A stretch of DNA of 33,265 nt from assembly GCA_964443365.1 (NCBI GenBank), contig CAYUCM010000002.1:1-33265 (forward strand), in the 5' to 3' direction. This DNA is from an uncultured Candidatus Saccharibacteria bacterium. Lineage in GTDB: Bacteria > Patescibacteriota > Minisyncoccia > Phycocordibacterales > CAIZLB01. Under the pieces are notes generated by a model that made no database searches, was not told the DNA's origin, and worked only from the letters and a program-made list of their open reading frames with translations. Of this stretch, positions 2,429 to 11,817 are shown piece after piece. How positions within the stretch are numbered: position 1 is the first letter of the stretch; the number at the start of each line of letters is the position of its first letter. The position numbers and the translations under genes were made by a program.

Positions 2429-3622
2429 TTAGGCTACGATCTTTGTTACAACTCCGGCACCAACAGTTCTTCCACCTTCACGAATAGCTAGTCTTTGCTT
2501 TTCTTCAAGAGCAATAGGAGCTACAAGCTTAACTTTGAAAGTAACTGTGTCACCAGGCATAACCATGTCTACGCCTTCCTTTAGAGTAACCTCTCCTGTT
2601 ACGTCAGTTGTACGTACGTAGAACTGTGGTTTGTAACCTGAGAAGAATGGAGTGTGTCGACCGCCTTCTTCCTTCTTAAGGATATACACTTCAGCCTCAA
2701 ATTCTGTATGAGGAGTAATTGATCCTGGCTTTGAGATAACTTGTCCTCTCATAAGATCATCTTTCTTTACAGATCTTAGAAGAATACCAGCGTTGTCTCC
2801 TGCCATACCTTCTGTTAGTTGCTTATTGAACATTTCAATTCCTGTAACAACAGTCTTTTGAGTGTCCTTAAGACCAACGATTTCAATTTCCTCACCAATC
2901 TTAACTACACCCTTTTCAATCTTTCCTGTAACTACTGTTCCTCTTCCTTCAATTGAGAAGATATCTTCAATAGGCATCAAGAATGGCTTTTCAACCTCTC
3001 TTACAGGTTGTGGAATGTAAGTATCTAGAGCGTCTGCAAGTTCTAGGATTTTCTTTGACCACTCATCATTGTTATCTGCAGATTCAAGAGCCTTAAGAGC
3101 TGAACCTCTAATAACTGGAGCGTTTTCGTCAAATCCATTCTTTGCTAGAAGCTCTCTGATTTCTGCTTCAACAAGGTCTAGCATATCTGCATCCTCAACC
3201 ATATCACACTTGTTCATGAATACGATTATCTTTGGAACACCAACTTGCTTTGCAAGAAGAACGTGCTCACGTGTTTGTGGCATTGGTCCGTCTGTTGCAG
3301 CAACTACTAGGATAGCGCCGTCCATTTGAGCAGCACCAGTAATCATGTTTTTAATGTAATCAGCGTGACCTGGAGCGTCAATGTGTGCATAGTGACGAGC
3401 GTTTGTAGCATACTCACTGTGTGAAAGTGAAATTGTAATACCACGAGCCTTTTCTTCAGGTGCCTTGTCAATTTCTCCAACACCCTTAACTGTAGCTTGC
3501 ATACCTCCTCTATGTAGAACATTAAGGATTGCAGCTGTTAAAGTTGTCTTTCCGTGGTCAACGTGACCAATTGTTCCCACGTTTACGTGTGGTTTTGAAC
3601 GATCGAAATTTCCGGTTGCCAT
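2429..3622 (-). CDS. tuf: Elongation factor Tu
   Basis: 397 aa with [18 protein letters not shown] and NKCD G-motifs. Full length. Confidence 0.98.
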
Positions 3623-3876
3623 AATATTTGTTGATAATTATAGAATTGCGTGTTGTAGTTTATGGATATCGCCATAAAACACCCAATTTTTCTAATTAAT
3701 AAAATTAATTTTAATAAATTTCTCAAATTTCGTCTCTAGTGCTTCCCTTTGTATATAGCTTTATTATGTTTTTATCCTTAATATTGGCCTTAAATCAAAA
3801 GGAAGGTGCGAGAAGAAAACCGCCAAAAGGCGTTAACTGGATAATATCAGAAGGTGGGGGTTTGTCAATAAGAATT

Positions 3877-3904
3877 CAACCTCCAGCTGGGTAGCTGGAG
3901 GTTG
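3877..3904 (-). terminator. Perfect 12-bp stem / 4-nt loop hairpin directly after the 97-aa ORF
   Basis: caacctccagct-gggt-agctggaggttg, checked base by base. On the minus strand it is followed by aattcttattg. It lies 34 nt downstream of the TAG at 3938-3940. Confidence 0.55.
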
Positions 3905-3937: not shown

Positions 3938-4231
3938 CTAATCCCAGTGGTCAGATCCTCCGATTCCATTCTTGGCCAAGAGAACCTTCTTGACCATATA
4001 CAGAATCGCAACGATGGTGACGGCGCAGCCCATAGCCCCCAGAAAAAACCAAAGGGGTGTCTTGTTGGAAAAACCTTCCGTCTTCTCGTAAAACGAGCCC
4101 CACAACCTCCAACAAGAAGCTGCGATGACCGCCATGCCGTAGACCGCAAGACTCACCAGGAGGCACCAAGGTGACGAGCAAAGATTGTCTTTTCCCACGG
4201 GTTTGTTGAACCACTTTCTGAATGTTTTCAT
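3938..4231 (-). CDS. Small (97 aa) two-TM membrane protein of unknown function, encoded in a G+C-rich foreign cassette
   Basis: ATG at 4231 and TAG at 3940-3938. The N-terminus is basic (MKTFRKWFNKPVGK). There are two ~20-residue hydrophobic segments (WCLLVSLAVYGMAVIAASCW and LWFFLGAMGCAVTIVAILYMV), and the C-tail is basic then acidic. It is the only one of the four overlapping open frames that reads like a protein. Third codon positions are G/C-rich, unlike every neighbour. Confidence 0.55.
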   Translation of the reverse strand: MKTFRKWFNKPVGKDNLCSSPWCLLVSLAVYGMAVIAASCWRLWGSFYEKTEGFSNKTPLWFFLGAMGCAVTIVAILYMVKKVLLAKNGIGGSDHWD

Positions 4232-4309
4232 TGTAAAAATGAGGCCTTTCTGTCCTCAGGTTTATTGATTGATGTCCCGACACCTTTTTGTGACGGGAGA
4301 TCTGTCAAT

Positions 4310-4337
4310 ACTTTAATCTTTTTTATTCAGGTGTCAA
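4310..4337 (-). promoter_or_regulatory. Candidate sigma70-type promoter for the 97-aa gene
   Basis: The minus strand reads TTGACA (4337-4332), a 16-nt spacer, then TAAAGT (4315-4310). This is about 80 nt upstream of the ATG at 4231. Confidence 0.4.
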
Positions 4338-4363
4338 CAAAATATGGCACGACGCAAACAAAA

Positions 4364-4383
4364 ACACCCCACTTATGGAGTGT
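4364..4383 (-). terminator. Intrinsic terminator-like hairpin (second of two downstream of the fusA fragment)
   Basis: The minus strand reads ACACTCCA-TAAG-TGGGGTGT followed by TTTTTGTTTG. This is an 8-bp stem including one G-U pair. Confidence 0.5.
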
Positions 4384-4450
4384 TTTTGTTTTGATATTAT
4401 CTTTAAGCTATCATCTATTTGATTATAACAAATTTACTAACTATACAAAA

Positions 4451-4470
4451 ACACCCCATTTCTGGGATGT
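4451..4470 (-). terminator. Intrinsic terminator-like hairpin downstream of the fusA fragment
   Basis: The minus strand reads ACATCCCA-GAAA-TGGGGTGT followed by TTTTTGTATAG. It lies 36 nt after the stop codon of repeat copy A. Confidence 0.55.
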
Positions 4471-4505
4471 CTTTGCCAAAACTTTTTTGTTTTGCCTTGC
4501 TTGTA

Positions 4506-4706
4506 TTATTTCCTACTCTCCACAATTGTCTTCTCCACATTAGCTGGAACTGTATCGTAGTGATCAAATTCCATACTAACTGAACCTCTTCCTTGTGTCA
4601 TTGATCTGATGTCTGTTGTGTAACCAAACATTTCAGACAATGGAACCATGGCTCTAATAACTTTGATTCCACCTGCTCTATCGTCCATTCCTTCAATTTG
4701 TCCTCT
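4506..4706 (-). pseudogene. fusA: Orphan duplicate of the last 66 codons plus stop of fusA (EF-G domain V C-terminus)
   Basis: 100% identical over 201 nt to 8505-8705. It retains an in-frame ATG (4688) that gives the 60-aa peptide [10 protein letters not shown]...TIVESRK, identical to the EF-G C-terminus. No upstream fusA sequence is present. Confidence 0.85.
4506..4706. repeat. Direct repeat copy A (201 bp, perfect)
   Basis: Hand alignment with 8505-8705 shows every position identical. The flanking bases differ on both sides (4505 vs 8504, 4707 vs 8706). Confidence 0.97.
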
Positions 4707-4730
4707 TGATATTTTTTTATACGATAAACA

Positions 4731-7700
4731 TTATTCATCAATCTCATCTATTTCCTTAGGTTGACTGGGGTTATAATTCTCAGCTCTTTCCCAATCAATT
4801 GGAATGACACCTCCTACTTCACCAGTTTCTTCATTAAATTCAATTATCGTATCTTTTATCCTCCATCTTTTATCAATACCAAGTGTTGTCCTGAATAATT
4901 TAGCCATTTCCCCATTCTTTTCAGCAACTACCATCAGAATTACTTTGATTTGTTCTTCACTAAATTTACCCAAATCTTTTAAGTATTTATCAAAATTTCT
5001 TCCAGAAACTCCTTCTATTTTTTTCATAAGCAAATAACTACCATCTAGTTCCTCCTTACCAGAGACAAACCCCACAGGTTCTGCTGTTGGTAATCCAGCC
5101 TTTTTGGCAGAAATAAGAATAGAAAACTCTTTTCGGGCTTCTTTTGATTTTCTAAGTTCAATCTTTTTTGCTACAATTTCTGTTCCATCTGTCATTTTAA
5201 ACAAAATAATTTCTTCATCAGGAAATTCTCCCGTACCCTTACTGCCTTTTAATAATTCTCCATATGTATTCAAAAAACTCCTTGGATCATTAATAAATTC
5301 TTGTGGTAATTTCCTTGCATATTCTTGTCGTATACGAATAGTATAATGCTCAGAATCTAAATTCATATTACCAGAAGGTTCATGATGCAACTTCTCCTTT
5401 AGCCAATAATGACGCGCAATCGCCTGCTTAATCATCATGTATTCAAATTGCTCCAAAGGAGAAGTCGGCTCAGCGATAGGGCGGATTTTTCCGGTTTCGG
5501 GATCTTTTATTAATCCCACAGCGGTATTATCTAATTTAGCATTATGCTCAATATATTCAACAATTTCTGATCTGGCATTTTTTGGTATTCCCTTAATGCG
5601 ACGACCTGTGGTCTTAGCCGACAGTAAACGAATTCTTTTTTCAATATCATCACTATCAAAATCCATTATTTTCATTATCTGTTCGGGAATTGTGCCGGTA
5701 TAGCCAGTATCATAAAATAAAGGGTCCATATCCGGAGTAATTCTTTCTTGTGCCAAAAATGCACGCTTAGTTTTATAATCTAAGTTATCGCGAAAATATC
5801 TTGGGTAAACCGTATATTGCGGATTAATTTCAACAACCTCCCCCATTTCTCTAAGTTTTTTTCTTCCTTCAAGTCCCATTTTTCTACGACGAGCAACATC
5901 TTGTGCTCGTCTACCAATATATGCATAAATACCGTCTCTACCTAAATAAACTTCCAGTGGATTTCTGCCTGTCTCTCTTAAATTATCAAATTCTTCGTAA
6001 AGTTTATCATATAAAGGAATATCAACTTCGTAAGCTTTTATATATTTTTCGAATCCATAATGAAGAAGAGATTGTATGTCCTGCAACAAAACTTCACCTC
6101 TAGGGTAGTTGCCAGACCAATCTTTGTCATTTTCGTCAGTAACCACCTCTTCCTGCCTGTTCTTATTTCCAAGTTCATAGTTTAATTTATCTATATCTCC
6201 TTCATGTCTTTGTACTAAATAACGCGCAACCAAAGAACGAATGCTATCAATCAATGGGGTCATTTTAACCAAACCTGATTTTGGATTTAATAATACACTT
6301 TTATCTTCTTCATTAATTTTTGAATTTAGCTGAATATCCTTAAGAAAACCTTCGTAACATCCTTCTGTGATCCTTTTTACTTCCTCTAGAAACGGAAATA
6401 TCTCCTGGCTATTTATTCCCAAATTTTCCAGCTCTTTATCTTCTGGTTTTCCGCTCATTAATTCCGAAATCGCCAACGCTGTTTTAATTTGTTTATCTCC
6501 AAAACGCCAAGGGTGATCTTCAAATTGGTCAAAGTCTCTCAGTCCTTCATTATGATATCCCCCTTCATATCCATCATCATTATTATCTTCATACTGTGGT
6601 GTAGCTGAAATTTTTGCCTTTACAAGAGCCTGTTCCACCCACGTCAGACCCTTCCATTTATCTTTGATTTTCTTCGTTGTCCAGCCATCATCTTCTTCCA
6701 CTTCAAGAATAAACTTTTTAGCTACTGAATAATGCGATATTGCCTTGTTAATATTTTCCGCTACCCATGGTTGTTGATAATATTTATCAAGATTTTCAAC
6801 AAAATAATCTGCCAAGTTTTGATCTTTTTCTAAATTATCAAAAATCATATTCCTAGCTTTATCAAAAACCAAAGGAAGTATTTTTTGTTTTTCTTCATCT
6901 CCAAGATATGGAATAAATCTTATCAGACTAGATTCGGTAATCTTGTTTACTTGCTCTCTATCAAAAGCTTGTACCAAATCTTCAGCCCCATCTATAAGGT
7001 TTTTAATTTTACCAATTATTTCAAAGTTTTTATTATTATATAAAGACTTAATCTCTGCTTTTAAAAGTTTATATGTAAAATCACGCAACTCTTTATTGGG
7101 TTCTATTATTTCGATCCCCTCCTTCATGTAACCCAATTCTTCATTAAGGTCCTCTTCTATAACACTCATTTCACCTTCTGAAACCCCTTTTATGTTAGGT
7201 AAATTATATTCTTTTTTTGTAATTTTTTTAATTTCTTTCGGAACCAATAAACCATCAAAAAAATGTTGTGTAAGATCTACACTATTAGGGTTGAGCGACC
7301 AGTCTGACAAAATTTGCTTAAGCCATTCTTGTTTAGATTCCATGGATTTAAACATGTCTATACCTTTTTTGGTTAAATCAAATTCTTCTTCTGAAAAATT
7401 ACTATCAATATTCCCCATGAGTAATCCCGGAGTTATACCTTTTTGCATAAACTTTTGCGCTTTGACGATAAATAACCTTTGATCTTCAATCGTCATTTTA
7501 TTAAATTCTCCAACAAAAAAATCCCAAGTCGTGCTTTTATCATATTTGATTGACTTTACCACTATAGAAAGTCCATCATTCAATCCTACCAAACTACCCT
7601 TAGATAATTCTTTCCATTTATTAAAAACATCATCAGGCTCATAAATTTTTTTGCCCTTATCGTCTTTTTTATCGGAGATTTTAATCTTTCCAAAAATATT

Positions 7701-8342
7701 ATCTAGCAGTTTGCAAAATGATTTTTCACCATACAGTGGCATAAACTCTGCTAATTTACCAAGCAATTCAAAAGTTGTTTCATCATAGTTTAAACCATTG
7801 TGAGCCCTAAACCATAAATCCATAAGAATATCCTTGGGGTTATCACCATTTTCTCCTTGAACTGCATTATTCTTTAGTATATTGATAAGTGAATCCATCG
7901 AGTTTTTCTCATTAGATCCCGTTCGAGATAAAGAATACAATGAATCAATAATCTGTTTAATTAAAGAATAGCTTAAATAACCATTAGGCTCTTTTGAAAC
8001 TTTTGCAACATCAATAATATTTTGAGCATATTTACGGAAATCTTTTGGACTATTTATATTAAAATACCAAAATCTTTTTTCAATCTCCTCAAAAATAATC
8101 TTCATTACCTGGGAATTATCCGAGTCAAAACCTTCTCCAAGTTGTTCACGAACTTGGTCACACATAGCAGATATTTCCTCTCTAATTTTATCTTTGTCCA
8201 AGCTGTTCAACTTTTTAATCAAACCTCCATCTTCCTTAAGGTCATTTGGAACTCCTAATTCAGACAACTCAATTGGACTAATTTCTTTTTGTTTTCCTAC
8301 TAGACCATCTTTTTCAATTTCTAATTCAAATCTTTGTTTCAT
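4731..8342 (-). CDS. 1203-aa orphan protein: long Lys/Glu/Asp-rich N-terminal region, Arg-rich central module, C-terminal protein-kinase-like domain
   Basis: Uninterrupted 3,612-nt ORF with an ATG start, a TAA stop and host-like AT-rich composition. Only short, clearly spurious antisense ORFs overlap it. The C-terminal ~170 aa carry kinase-fold motifs in the correct order: GSKGTGEF, IVAKKI, KEARKEF, LLMKKIEG, RIKDTIIEFN, IDWE. I recognise no NTPase, nuclease or recombinase motif. Confidence 0.85.
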   Translation of the reverse strand: MKQRFELEIEKDGLVGKQKEISPIELSELGVPNDLKEDGGLIKKLNSLDKDKIREEISAMCDQVREQLGEGFDSDNSQVMKIIFEEIEKRFWYFNINSPKDFRKYAQNIIDVAKVSKEPNGYLSYSLIKQIIDSLYSLSRTGSNEKNSMDSLINILKNNAVQGENGDNPKDILMDLWFRAHNGLNYDETTFELLGKLAEFMPLYGEKSFCKLLDNIFGKIKISDKKDDKGKKIYEPDDVFNKWKELSKGSLVGLNDGLSIVVKSIKYDKSTTWDFFVGEFNKMTIEDQRLFIVKAQKFMQKGITPGLLMGNIDSNFSEEEFDLTKKGIDMFKSMESKQEWLKQILSDWSLNPNSVDLTQHFFDGLLVPKEIKKITKKEYNLPNIKGVSEGEMSVIEEDLNEELGYMKEGIEIIEPNKELRDFTYKLLKAEIKSLYNNKNFEIIGKIKNLIDGAEDLVQAFDREQVNKITESSLIRFIPYLGDEEKQKILPLVFDKARNMIFDNLEKDQNLADYFVENLDKYYQQPWVAENINKAISHYSVAKKFILEVEEDDGWTTKKIKDKWKGLTWVEQALVKAKISATPQYEDNNDDGYEGGYHNEGLRDFDQFEDHPWRFGDKQIKTALAISELMSGKPEDKELENLGINSQEIFPFLEEVKRITEGCYEGFLKDIQLNSKINEEDKSVLLNPKSGLVKMTPLIDSIRSLVARYLVQRHEGDIDKLNYELGNKNRQEEVVTDENDKDWSGNYPRGEVLLQDIQSLLHYGFEKYIKAYEVDIPLYDKLYEEFDNLRETGRNPLEVYLGRDGIYAYIGRRAQDVARRRKMGLEGRKKLREMGEVVEINPQYTVYPRYFRDNLDYKTKRAFLAQERITPDMDPLFYDTGYTGTIPEQIMKIMDFDSDDIEKRIRLLSAKTTGRRIKGIPKNARSEIVEYIEHNAKLDNTAVGLIKDPETGKIRPIAEPTSPLEQFEYMMIKQAIARHYWLKEKLHHEPSGNMNLDSEHYTIRIRQEYARKLPQEFINDPRSFLNTYGELLKGSKGTGEFPDEEIILFKMTDGTEIVAKKIELRKSKEARKEFSILISAKKAGLPTAEPVGFVSGKEELDGSYLLMKKIEGVSGRNFDKYLKDLGKFSEEQIKVILMVVAEKNGEMAKLFRTTLGIDKRWRIKDTIIEFNEETGEVGGVIPIDWERAENYNPSQPKEIDEIDE

Positions 8343-8368
8343 AAATTTTATTTTACAAATATTATTTT

Positions 8369-8377
8369 ATTATAGCA
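8369..8377 (-). promoter_or_regulatory. Extended -10 element (TGCTATAAT) upstream of the 1203-aa ORF
   Basis: The minus strand reads TGcTATAAT, 26 nt upstream of the ATG at 8342 and downstream of the fusA terminator. The -35 is weak (GGTACA). Confidence 0.4.
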
Positions 8378-8407
8378 CACAACGCTAGGTTGTACCCTAA
8401 TTTACAT

Positions 8408-8443
8408 AAAAAACACAAAAACACCCCTCTCGGGGTGCTTTTG
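8408..8443 (-). terminator. Rho-independent terminator of fusA
   Basis: The minus strand reads CACCCC-GAGA-GGGGTG followed by TTTTTGTGTTTTTT. It lies 68 nt after the fusA stop. Confidence 0.75.
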
Positions 8444-8504
8444 TCAGAATGTATTGCACGTTTTTAGAGAAGTGTCTTGAATACGGCTCTGTTGCTATCT
8501 TTAT

Positions 8505-8705
8505 TTATTTCCTACTCTCCACAATTGTCTTCTCCACATTAGCTGGAACTGTATCGTAGTGATCAAATTCCATACTAACTGAACCTCTTCCTTGTGTCAT
8601 TGATCTGATGTCTGTTGTGTAACCAAACATTTCAGACAATGGAACCATGGCTCTAATAACTTTGATTCCACCTGCTCTATCGTCCATTCCTTCAATTTGT
8701 CCTCT
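8505..8705. repeat. Direct repeat copy B (201 bp, perfect), which is the genuine 3' end of fusA
   Basis: Identical to 4506-4706. It begins exactly at the fusA stop codon. Confidence 0.97.
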
Positions 8706-10658
8706 CTTTGACGAAAGTGAACCTGTAACGTCACCCATGAATTGTTCTGGTGTTAACGCTTCAACTTTCATAATAGGCTCAAGAATAACAGGTCTAGCTT
8801 TTCTAGCTGCCTCTTGAAACGCTTGAGAAGCTGCAATTTTGTAAGCAATTTCTGATGAGTCCACATCGTGATATGATCCAAAAGTAAGTTCACAAGATAC
8901 ATTTGTTAGAGGGAAACCAGCAACAATACCTCTTTCCATTGCTTCCTTAACTCCCTTTTCAACTGCTGGGATAAATTCTGCTGGGATAACTCCTCCTTTA
9001 ATAGAATCGATAAATTCAAATCCTTCAGTTCTATGAACGTTCTTAGGAATTTTAGCACCCTCTTCTAGTGGTTCTAGATGCTTAATATTAATCTTAACGT
9101 GACCATATTGTCCCTTACCTCCAGATTGCTTAACATATTTATGCTCTGCTTCTGAAGACCCAAGAATGGTTTCTCTGTATGCGACTTGAGGAGCTCCAAC
9201 ATTAGCCTCGACACTAAACTCTCTTTTCATTCTATCAACCATAATTTCAAGGTGAAGTTCACCCATACCTGAAATAACAGTATCTCCAGTTTCTTGATTT
9301 GAAGAAATTCTAAATGTTGGGTCTTCATCACTCAATTTTTTAAGAGCAACACCCATCTTTTCTTGATCAGCCTTTGTCTTTGGCTCAATTCTTAGAGACA
9401 CAACAGGCTCTGCGAATTTAATAGGATCAAGAATGATTGGATGAGTTTCATCACAGAAAGTATGTGAAGTCTTTGCCTCCTTAAGACCAACAGCGGCAGC
9501 AATTTCTCCAGCATAAACTTTCTTAACTTCTTCACGCTTATTAGCTTGAAGTCTAACAATACGTCCAAGTCTTTCTTTATTTCCTGTTGACGAGTTATAA
9601 ATATATGAACCCGCTTCAATTGTTCCTGAATAAACACGGAAGAAAGTAAGTTGTCCTACGAATGGGTCAGTTTGCAATTTGAATGCAAGAGCTGAAAATG
9701 GTTCTTCATCTGAAGCATGTCTTTCAATTTCTGCTCCTGTTTCTGGATCAATTCCCTTCATTGGAGGAACATCAAGAGGACATGGTAGATAATCAACAAC
9801 AGCATCCAATACTAATTGAACACCCTTGTTCTTTAGAGCTGAACCTGTGAACACTGGGAAAACTTTGTTTGCAATAACTCCCTTTCTTAGAGACGCTTTA
9901 AGCTCGTCAATTGTAAATTCTGCAGACTCGCCATTTTCCAAATATCTGTTCATTAATTCTTCATCAAACTCTACACACTTTTCAACAAGCTCTTGTCTTC
10001 TTAATTTTGCTTCATCAAGCATGTCAGCTGGAATTTCATATTCAACAACTGTACTTCCCATATCTCCTTCAAATTTATAAGCTTTCATCTTTAAAAGATC
10101 TACCATTCCTTCCAAATCTGATTCAAGACCAATTGGAAGTTGCATTCTTATTGCATTCTTATTTAGTCTATCCAAAATTGATTGATATGATCTTTCAAAT
10201 GATGCTCCCATTCTATCCAATTTGTTAATGAAACAAATACGAGGAACATGATATTTATCAGCCTGTCTCCAAACTGTTTCAGATTGAGCCTCAACTCCGG
10301 CAACACCATCAAATACTACAACTCCACCGTCCAAAACTTTAAGAGATCTTTCAACCTCAACTGTAAAGTCTACGTGACCTGGTGTGTCGATAATATTAAA
10401 TCTTTGCATTTGTGACTTATCTGTACCCATGTATGTTGGATTCCAGAAACAAGTAATAGCAGCTGCGGTAATTGTAATACCACGCTCTTTTTCTTGTTCC
10501 ATCCAGTCAGTTACAGCCTCACCTTCATGAACCTCACCAATTTTGTGACTCATTCCTGTGTAATAAAGAACGCGTTCTGATGTTGTTGTTTTTCCCGCAT
10601 CAATGTGAGCGATGATACCAAAGTTACGAACTCGCTCTAATGGATAATCACGATTCAT
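8505..10658 (-). CDS. fusA: Elongation factor G
   Basis: 717 aa with [17 protein letters not shown] and NKLDR G-motifs. Full-length domains I-V. Confidence 0.98.
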
Positions 10659-10778: not shown

Positions 10779-11249
10779 TTACCAAGCAAAGTGAGCGAAG
10801 GCCTTGTTTGCCTCTGCCATCTTGTGTGTGTTTTCCTTCTTTCTTACTGCCTCTCCTTCATTCTTTGAAGCTGCAATAATTTCATCTGCTAGTTTTAAAT
10901 GAATAGCTTTTCCTTTCTTTGCACGAGCAGCATCAATAATCCAGTTCATAGATAGAAATGATCTTCTCTCAGCTCTAACTTCTCTTGGAACTTGGTAGTT
11001 TGCTCCTCCCACTCTTCTTGAACGAACTTCAACTTGAGGGGCAGCATTCTTAAGTGCGGTTTCAAAAATCTCTATTGGATTTTCTGTTGCCGCCATTTCC
11101 TTGATTGCATCAAAGGTCTTGTAAACTATTTTTGTTGCAGTTTCTTTCTTTCCACTCCACATTATGTAGTTGATGAATTTAGAAACCACATCAGACTTAT
11201 ATTTAATATCAGGTTTTATTACAACCTTCTTTTTTAATTTTCTTCGCAT
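10779..11249 (-). CDS. rpsG: 30S ribosomal protein S7
   Basis: 156 aa with S7 motifs ([30 protein letters not shown]-like C-terminus). str operon order. Confidence 0.96.
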
Positions 11250-11400: not shown

Positions 11401-11817
11401 TTATTTACCTGCCTTTGGGCGCTTAGCACCGTAAGCTGAACGTTGTTTTCTACGCTTATCAACACCTGCACAGTCTAACTTTCCTCTAACAACGGTATAT
11501 CTAATACCTACGTCCTTTACACGTCCACCTCTTAGAAGAACAACTGAGTGCTCTTGCAAGTTGTGACCCATGCCTGGGATATAAGCAGTAACTTCCATAC
11601 CATTTGTAAGACGAACTCTAGCAATCTTTCTGATAGCTGAGTTAGGCTTTTTAGGTGTCTTAGTTGTAACCTTTGTACATACTCCTCTTTTGAATGATGA
11701 ATCATAGAAAATAGGCTTATTCTTCAAAGTGTTAAAACCACGAGTAAGGGCAATAGCCTTACTCTTTTTGCGTGCTTTTGAACGATTCTTCTTAACTAAT
11801 TGATTTAAAGTTGGCAT
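11401..11817 (-). CDS. rpsL: 30S ribosomal protein S12
   Basis: 138 aa with MPTLNQL, [11 protein letters not shown] and RGGRVKD motifs. Confidence 0.96.

Follow-up and report, generated by a model that had tools for sequence, protein, structure and literature searches.

The large open reading frame between fusA and tuf

The window, a complete 33-kb metagenome contig (33,265 nt) of a Patescibacteria (candidate phyla radiation, CPR) bacterium, carries an open reading frame (ORF) of 1203 codons between the genes of elongation factors G (EF-G, fusA) and Tu (EF-Tu, tuf). The genes of this region are all located on the minus strand in the order rpsL, rpsG, fusA, the 1203-residue ORF, a 60-residue ORF encoding a C-terminal part of EF-G, a small GC-rich ORF, tuf, rpsJ and rplC (Table 1). 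EF-G itself is intact, contains all of its Pfam domains and is 83% and 80% identical to the EF-G of two Patescibacteria metagenome-assembled genomes. In the reading proposed here, which we consider reasonably probable, the large ORF encodes a member of an unnamed CPR protein family, a probable ATP-dependent phosphotransferase in which a variable targeting region is combined with a new conserved domain, and its gene was recently recombined into the end of fusA.

The large ORF is preceded by a strong terminator behind fusA (a 13-bp stem followed by a T-run) and then by a promoter-like extended −10 element, TGcTATAAT, which was read from the sequence and is missing from the consensus scan list because its −35 box is poor. 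The composition of the ORF is host-like (GC content 0.329, GC content at third codon positions (GC3) 0.246, codon-usage correlation with the other window genes r = 0.89), and the middle of the protein (residues 800–1035) is rich in arginine (10%). Motif and hydrophobicity scans detect no Walker A, HExxH or Fic motif and no transmembrane (TM) segment in the protein, which we regard as a soluble, cytoplasmic family member. An initial annotation, made from the DNA letters and their translations, had described this ORF as the largest of the window, placed it between fusA and tuf behind a terminator and a promoter-like element of its own, and noted its host-like composition, its Arg-rich middle and its lack of Walker A and HExxH motifs; all of these observations hold.

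A protein family restricted to Patescibacteria

Judged by sequence, the large ORF belongs to a large protein family that is unnamed and confined to Patescibacteria, and the earlier label 'orphan' was wrong. When 1.84 billion cluster representatives (clusters at 50% identity) are searched exhaustively with HMMER, 214 proteins score E ≤ 1e-3; 120 of these reach E ≤ 1e-30, and some of the matches are full-length orthologues. The closest orthologue (locus L093, a 1204-residue ORF) is 69% identical to the window protein, and two others (P0002 and P0003) are 51% and 49% identical. With the C-terminal 459 residues (745–1203) as the query, 71 clusters are found, all of them 'hypothetical', which come from Paceibacterota, Spechtbacteria, Saccharimonadales and related groups. 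The ratio of nonsynonymous to synonymous substitution rates (dN/dS) relative to the L093 orthologue is 0.15 overall, 0.22 in the N-terminal part of the protein, and 0.058 and 0.05 in the two C-terminal modules A and B described below. These values identify a real gene under purifying selection.

Word-indexed searches with either the full protein or residues 1–744 return only the query itself. These searches are blind to more than 200 cluster-level relatives because the low-complexity, Lys/Glu-rich N-terminus fills the candidate list, and the relatives are recovered both by the exhaustive search and by querying with the conserved C-terminal region. The lesson for method is that 'no homologue' was here an artefact of a low-complexity N-terminus. 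Peptide-pattern scans with the full protein give no match in genome, viral or metagenome contigs, and exact look-ups of the window proteins give none either. The full protein matches nothing in Pfam, NCBIfam, PADLOC, PHROGs or the sequences of the Protein Data Bank (PDB), the phage and plasmid collections contain no homologue of it, and a literature search found nothing relevant.

Domain organisation of the large protein

The protein consists of a variable N-terminal region (residues 1–744), a conserved α/β domain (module A, residues 745–990) and a C-terminal kinase-like domain (module B, residues 991–1203). The family covers these parts unevenly: residues 1–420 are matched by 8–14 representatives, residues 450–745 by ~50–80, residues 750–985 (module A) by ~150 and residues 990–1200 by ~77, with module B being present in about half of the family members.

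The AlphaFold2 (AF2) model of residues 745–1203, calculated with a 65-sequence alignment, has a mean predicted local distance difference test score (pLDDT) of 91.9 and a predicted TM-score (pTM) of 0.87; a single-sequence model of residues 780–1203 is useless (pLDDT 37.7). Structure comparison makes a kinase N-lobe, hinge, helices αD/αE and catalytic strands recognisable in the former model. Its Foldseek matches in the PDB are YopO, WaaP, CaMKII, CDC7, ULK1 and RIO1/2 (probability 1.0, E from 2e-5 to 1e-3), and those in BFVD are viral protein kinases (best E 6e-7). The top matches in both databases are all kinases or kinase-like proteins, in which ~170–200 columns, corresponding to module B, can be aligned. 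The family consensus matches the Pfam APH profile with 33.3 bits (E = 5e-8, cutoff 23.2 bits) over profile positions 13–109 of 239 only, and it also matches Kdo and Pkinase; among the individual members, APH matches 14 of 65 at E ≤ 1.

The catalytic Lys/Glu/Asp/Asp set of kinases is conserved in the 74 module B sequences compared. K1059, which is part of a 'VAK' motif, is found in 88% of them, E1072 in 97%, D1164 in 96%, D1183 in ~80% and E1185 in 91%, the last two belonging to an 'IDWE' motif. D1164 and D1183 are separated by a canonical 19 residues, a G-loop (GSKGTG) occupies residues 1033–1038, and N1170 of the catalytic loop is present in the window protein. According to the secondary structure of the AF2 model, K1059 and E1072 would be the lysine of strand β3 and the glutamate of helix αC, respectively. 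The initial description of the C-terminus as kinase-like agrees with residue conservation, the AF2 model, the Foldseek matches and the APH match of the consensus; the domain comprises ~210 residues. The chain terminates at residue 1203, 20 residues after D1183 of the DFG-like motif, and the model contains no helix beyond the last strands, so the usual helical C-lobe is missing. Both the core of this lobe (αF–αI) and the activation segment are absent.

Module A is the conserved core of the family. About 30 of its residues are near-invariant, including Y778, D786, E797, G801, R802, D803, G804, R811, Y843, D878, T879, G880, G883, P886, R914, E932, K936 and H978, and the window protein carries all of them together with the motifs GRDG and DTGxxG(T/S). 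The module is 87% identical between the window protein and its L093 orthologue and is also found in complete genes that have no module B. The consensus of module A matches nothing in Pfam, and profiles of modules A and B together or of module A alone produce only noise against PDB sequences (IpaD and twinfilin, E > 0.03). Several assignments were considered and dropped. A weak Pfam match to FucT_N (best E = 0.0068) is not credible, and a LOG/SLOG-type domain, for which GxxGTxxE resembles PGGxGTxxE, has an hhalign probability of 0.9%. DDE transposases, tyrosine recombinases, HAD and ParB/Srx proteins, as well as methyltransferase motif I, PRTase, PD-(D/E)xK and HEPN folds, were discarded by inspection as their motifs or the order of secondary structure elements do not fit.

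The high pTM points to a single body made up of modules A and B. Because AF2 predicts them as one compact unit, module A, which may be catalytic or substrate-binding, could supply the substrate-binding surface that module B lacks. The N-terminal region contains no internal repeats in the window protein, and other members carry 28- or 34-residue tandem α-solenoid-like repeats in this position; the N-terminal regions of six long homologues contain no informative Pfam domain. This fast-evolving helical or repeat region probably recognises the target; it would select the substrate on which modules A and B work as an ATP-dependent phosphotransferase.

A 3999-bp unit between 201-nt direct repeats

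The large ORF is flanked on both sides by a perfect direct repeat of 201 nt, which was overlooked in the initial annotation. Its two copies, R1 and R2, are spaced by 3999 nt. In the orientation of the gene, the layout is the body of fusA, R1, a 162-nt spacer (8343–8504) with the terminator and the promoter, the large ORF, 24 nt, R2 and an older spacer. As in integrative elements, the flanking direct repeats represent the 3′ end of a target gene, of which the upstream copy completes fusA. The 'EF-G fragment' downstream of the large ORF, previously proposed to be a partner gene, is an insertion scar, since it is a displaced duplication arm that copies the fusA 3′ end perfectly over 201 nt. The DNA homology shared with the L093 orthologue does not extend beyond the borders of the ORF. 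The single ORF of the unit has no Pfam, NCBIfam or PHROG recombinase match in a scan that took in the window ORFs up to 23.4 kb; these three databases identify no replication gene in the unit either.

A hairpin follows each copy of the repeat, and a third one is located 87 nt further on. These hairpins (Ha, Hb and Hc) share the pattern ACAAAA.CACCCC...GGGGTGTTTTTGT, all end in GGGGTGTTTTTGT and, within the 33 kb, are confined to the fusA–tuf gap. Repeated insertions at this site may have left them behind. In another locus (L152, 462–487), a family member is preceded by a similar hairpin.

R2 is in frame with the large ORF because 3999 is a multiple of three. There is no terminator between the two, and read-through of the TAA stop codon would add eight residues and the last 66 residues of EF-G to the large protein. 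The frame is probably a matter of chance, for which the odds are one in three.

The position of the large ORF behind fusA is probably recent and incidental. The 3999-bp unit, which comprises the terminator, the promoter, one gene and 24 nt, would have recombined into the last 201 nt of fusA, an event that would leave fusA intact and produce an identical, displaced 201-nt fragment of its 3′ end. Mechanistically, a single crossover of the Campbell type, with a circular intermediate, or a double template switch would be likeliest. The exact repeat is compatible with two genome states only: the unit is either integrated or forms a 3999-bp circle that has the repeat in common with the chromosome. 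Recombination between the repeats would interconvert these states. The host-like codon usage favours an origin of the unit elsewhere in the same genome or in a close relative.

The small GC-rich ORF in front of tuf is different. It encodes two hydrophobic segments, is located outside the 3999-bp unit and has a GC content of 0.503 and a GC3 of 0.643, compared with ~35% GC in the genome and with 0.33 and 0.25, respectively, in the large ORF. Neither the fetched loci nor the plasmid collection contain a homologue of it. It is probably a separate foreign mini-cassette or insertion with its own promoter and terminator. The initial annotation was right about the presence of both this ORF and the EF-G C-terminal ORF (4506–4688); the correct reading frame of the membrane protein is 3938–4231 and not 3951–4283.

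Table 1. Features of the fusA–tuf region of the window, listed in the direction of transcription
Feature	Position	Strand	Details
rpsL	11401–11817	−	
rpsG	10779–11249	−	
fusA (EF-G, 717 aa, intact)	8505–10658	−	Pfam GTP_EFTU, EF-G_D2, EFG_III, EFG_IV, EFG_C
Repeat copy R1	8505–8705	−	last 198 nt and stop codon of intact fusA; 100% identical to 4506–4706
Terminator hairpin Ha	8413–8444	−	13-bp stem and T-run at 8415–8444; first part of the 162-nt spacer of the unit
Extended −10 promoter-like element TGcTATAAT	8369–8377	−	upstream of the large ORF; poor −35
Large ORF, 1203 aa	4731–8342	−	ATG start
Residues 1–744, variable N-terminal region	6111–8342	−	no repeats in this member
Module A (residues 745–990), conserved family core, α/β domain	5373–6110	−	motifs GRDG (801–804), DTGxxGT (878–884)
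Module B (residues 991–1203), protein-kinase-like domain	4734–5372	−	no helical C-lobe after the DFG-like motif
24-nt spacer, large-ORF stop to R2	4707–4730	−	keeps R2 in frame with the large ORF
Repeat copy R2, displaced fusA 3′ fragment	4506–4706	−	60-aa ORF 4506–4688; Pfam EFG_C positions 35–87
Hairpins Hb (4445–4475) and Hc (4358–4389)	4358–4475	−	related to Ha; downstream of R2
Small 2-TM ORF, 97 aa	3938–4231	−	promoter 4310–4337, terminator 3877–3904
tuf (EF-Tu, 397 aa)	2429–3622	−	preceded by a strong promoter-like site, 3841–3868

Genomic contexts of the homologues

Neither fusA nor tuf is found within 10 kb of the family gene in any of ~90 family loci. The only translational GTPase gene in these neighbourhoods is lepA, ~700 nt upstream of P0002. 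Likewise, none of 80 fusA loci of relatives contains a family member. The fusA–tuf gap varies from 26 nt to ~6 kb in 46 related loci that hold both genes, and in 15 further related loci tuf is absent from at least the first 3 kb behind fusA. In this lineage the gap holds peptidoglycan-binding proteins, purD, rsmE and other genes, and for this lineage the statement that an insertion between fusA and tuf is very unusual was overstated. Large genes appear to have settled repeatedly in this spacer. Large PG_binding_1 proteins are encoded in it in three other Patescibacteria lineages (L009, 10751–14735; L015, 10318–14660; L025, 2229–5984).

The closest orthologue, that of L093, is located tightly between ligA and ftsW, upstream of rpoB. 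A family member adjoins ftsW/rodA upstream of rpoB in two distant lineages, represented by L093 (7763–16975) and by L083 (16457–22121) with its close relatives. The ftsW–rpoB neighbourhood, which recurs in these two lineages only, may be an older home locus of the family; in general, the family has no conserved neighbours.

The homologues occur in variable, accessory-looking contexts, as had been anticipated. At least five tandem paralogues adjoin a Fic gene in one locus (L082, 1–18200 of a 728-kb contig). The C-terminal DNA of these paralogues is 90–99% identical, and their N-terminal 28-residue (84-nt) repeats are variable. Some members elsewhere adjoin tRNA or tmRNA genes, a DNA methyltransferase gene or a ResIII helicase gene. 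Adjacency to tRNA genes is not a trait of the family, since the 8 of 72 unique genes with a tRNA gene within 600 nt match the background of 11.7%. All eight of these tRNA genes are located directly upstream on the same strand (L089, 5330–5401; L081, 7905–7981; L097, L118, L119, L126, L152 and L153). A tmRNA gene is found near the family gene in L088 (6605–6949), and L152 contains a duplicated 5′ fragment of a tRNA gene.

Flanking direct repeats were rejected as a general trait because they are seen only in L113 and in the paralogue array of L082. One subfamily (L113, L115 and 12 further loci, L099, L101, L103, L106, L111, L112, L116, L117, L121, L123, L130 and L131) has, just upstream of the family gene, ~500 nt of conserved, GC-rich non-coding DNA in common and a small ORF with an XRE-type helix-turn-helix (HTH). 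In L113 (1–5928) and L115 (1–5932), the unit is bracketed by perfect inverted repeats of 228–420 nt, outside which there are 128-nt direct repeats that end in tmRNA- or tRNA-like 3′ ends. The L113/L115 unit could be an invertible, transposon-like or linear cassette.

Comparison with known systems

Module B shares with APH/choline kinases (PF01636), Kdo/WaaP (PF06293) and RIO kinases an N-lobe made up of a β-sheet and αC, a hinge, αD/αE, a catalytic loop and a metal-binding Asp motif. The likeness extends to the β3 lysine, the αC glutamate, the catalytic aspartate and the DFG-like aspartate, which is part of 'IDWE' as in APH-type enzymes. Unlike these kinases, module B stops ~20 residues after the DFG-like motif and has neither an activation segment nor αF–αI; furthermore, it is invariably preceded by module A, a domain without counterpart in those families. 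The top Foldseek match, YopO/YpkA (5ce3_B, E = 2.3e-5), resembles the window protein in that a small kinase core is joined to a separate targeting or activation domain. OspG and NleH are minimal bacterial effector kinases that can stay active without parts of the C-lobe, and module B presumably resembles them. In contrast to OspG, NleH and YopO, the window protein has no secretion signal, GDI or actin-binding domain and no sequence similarity to them, and its host is an episymbiotic CPR bacterium.

The 3999-bp unit is organised like integrative islands, which enter the 3′ ends of tRNA, tmRNA and housekeeping genes and rebuild them with a copy of their own: the target is intact, a displaced 3′ fragment is located at the far end, and direct repeats flank the unit. 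Some family members in other genomes are also found directly downstream of tRNA genes or beside tmRNA. Unlike such islands, the unit is 4 kb long, has one gene and carries no integrase. The length (201 nt) and perfect identity (100%) of the repeat favour homologous recombination or template switching over recombination at a short att core. With the Doc/Fic toxins that modify EF-Tu, the window protein has nothing in common beyond the notion of an enzyme whose gene is located close to those of translation factors. It differs from them in fold, has neither a Fic motif nor an antitoxin-like partner, and its family shows no conserved linkage to tuf.

Alternative interpretations

Several observations weigh against the reading of the window protein as a phosphotransferase that was recently recombined into fusA. 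The window sequence by itself reaches only 16.0 bits (E = 0.011) against Pfam APH, below the cutoff of 23.2 bits, and its Kdo match is sub-threshold as well. The kinase matches extend over no more than ~170–200 residues with a TM-score of 0.3–0.45 relative to the target, N1170 is kept in only ~50–60% of the members, there is no homologue with known function, and the role given to module A is a guess. The absence of αF–αI means that module B could be a nucleotide-binding pseudokinase. On the side of the insertion, the hairpin after R1 is only ~70–84% like those after R2, even though the repeats are 100% identical, so a single simple duplication fails to explain the arrangement; and the contig on its own fits an integrated unit and a free 4-kb circle sharing 201 nt equally.

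The last point leads to an alternative that we consider unlikely, in which the 3999-bp unit exists mostly as a free circle that shares 201 nt with fusA and was threaded into the chromosome by the assembler, or in which empty and filled sites are mixed. An assembly graph would allow only two solutions (fusA-R-unit-R-tuf, or fusA-R-tuf and a circle of R and the unit), and integrated copies with perfect flanking repeats can loop out by homologous recombination. This is countered by a unit without a recognisable replication or recombination gene, by plasmid and phage collections without a homologue, by host-like codon usage and by the ordinary chromosomal operon contexts of the family elsewhere, e.g. 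in L093. Somewhat more doubtful still is the idea that module B is a non-catalytic pseudokinase or nucleotide sensor and the protein a scaffold or regulator, with any real chemistry residing in module A. The domain that ends 20 residues after the DFG-like motif without the usual C-lobe core, the moderate conservation of N1170, and module A, which is at least as conserved as module B and stands alone in complete genes, are all compatible with it. Yet K1059, E1072, D1164 and E1185 are conserved at 85–97% and D1183 at ~80%, the dN/dS of module B is as low as 0.05, and minimal kinases without parts of the C-lobe (OspG, NleH) can be active.

The initial proposal that the protein is a Doc-like kinase or toxin modifying EF-G or EF-Tu, or a defence effector that uses the str operon as a carrier and is partnered by the membrane protein and the EF-G fragment, is improbable. 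The kinase-like domain with its intact catalytic residues, the gene position between fusA and tuf, the in-frame EF-G fragment without an intervening terminator and the P0002 orthologue downstream of lepA, which encodes another translational GTPase, speak for it. Targeting of EF-G or EF-Tu was deduced from the position of the gene, however, and this position is not conserved (0 of ~90 family loci, 0 of 80 fusA loci); the closest orthologue is part of a tight ligA-X-ftsW arrangement. The large protein has no match in PADLOC (PADLOC-DB v2, E ≤ 1), no Fic motif (regular expression HxFx(D/E)(G/A)N(G/K)R), no Pfam Fic match and no Doc signal. Of the supposed partners, the EF-G fragment is a by-product of recombination, a perfect copy of the neighbour's end, and the membrane ORF, foreign in composition and outside the unit, has no counterpart near any homologue. 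Thus, the kinase-like call and the accessory flavour of the gene are supported, and the terms 'orphan', 'partners' and 'translation-factor-directed' are not.

The most far-reaching interpretation, which we regard as very improbable, is that the 4-kb unit is a self-mobile single-gene cassette and that the family protein, via module A, is a new recombination or transposition enzyme that inserts the gene encoding it into conserved genes (fusA, tRNA, tmRNA) at their 3′ ends without a canonical integrase. It would account for the 201-nt target duplication, the copies adjacent to tRNA and tmRNA genes, the inverted-repeat cassettes of L113 and L115 and the tandem paralogue arrays.

Significance

There is no evidence for a new translation-factor toxin at this locus, and current knowledge is not overturned. 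The perfect 201-nt duplication of the end of an essential gene is a recent and clean example of a single gene spliced into the str region. The family to which this gene belongs is sizeable (at least 214 clusters at 50% identity), is restricted to Patescibacteria, has no Pfam or NCBIfam model and is worth naming. It combines, in an unusual pairing, a very conserved new domain with a kinase that has no C-lobe. Variable N-terminal repeats and tandem arrays in one genome form a pattern typical of proteins that keep up with changing targets, and for episymbiotic CPR bacteria this pattern could mean host manipulation or conflict with phages. A name and functional tests for the family would help to fill in part of the large 'dark' proteome of CPR bacteria.

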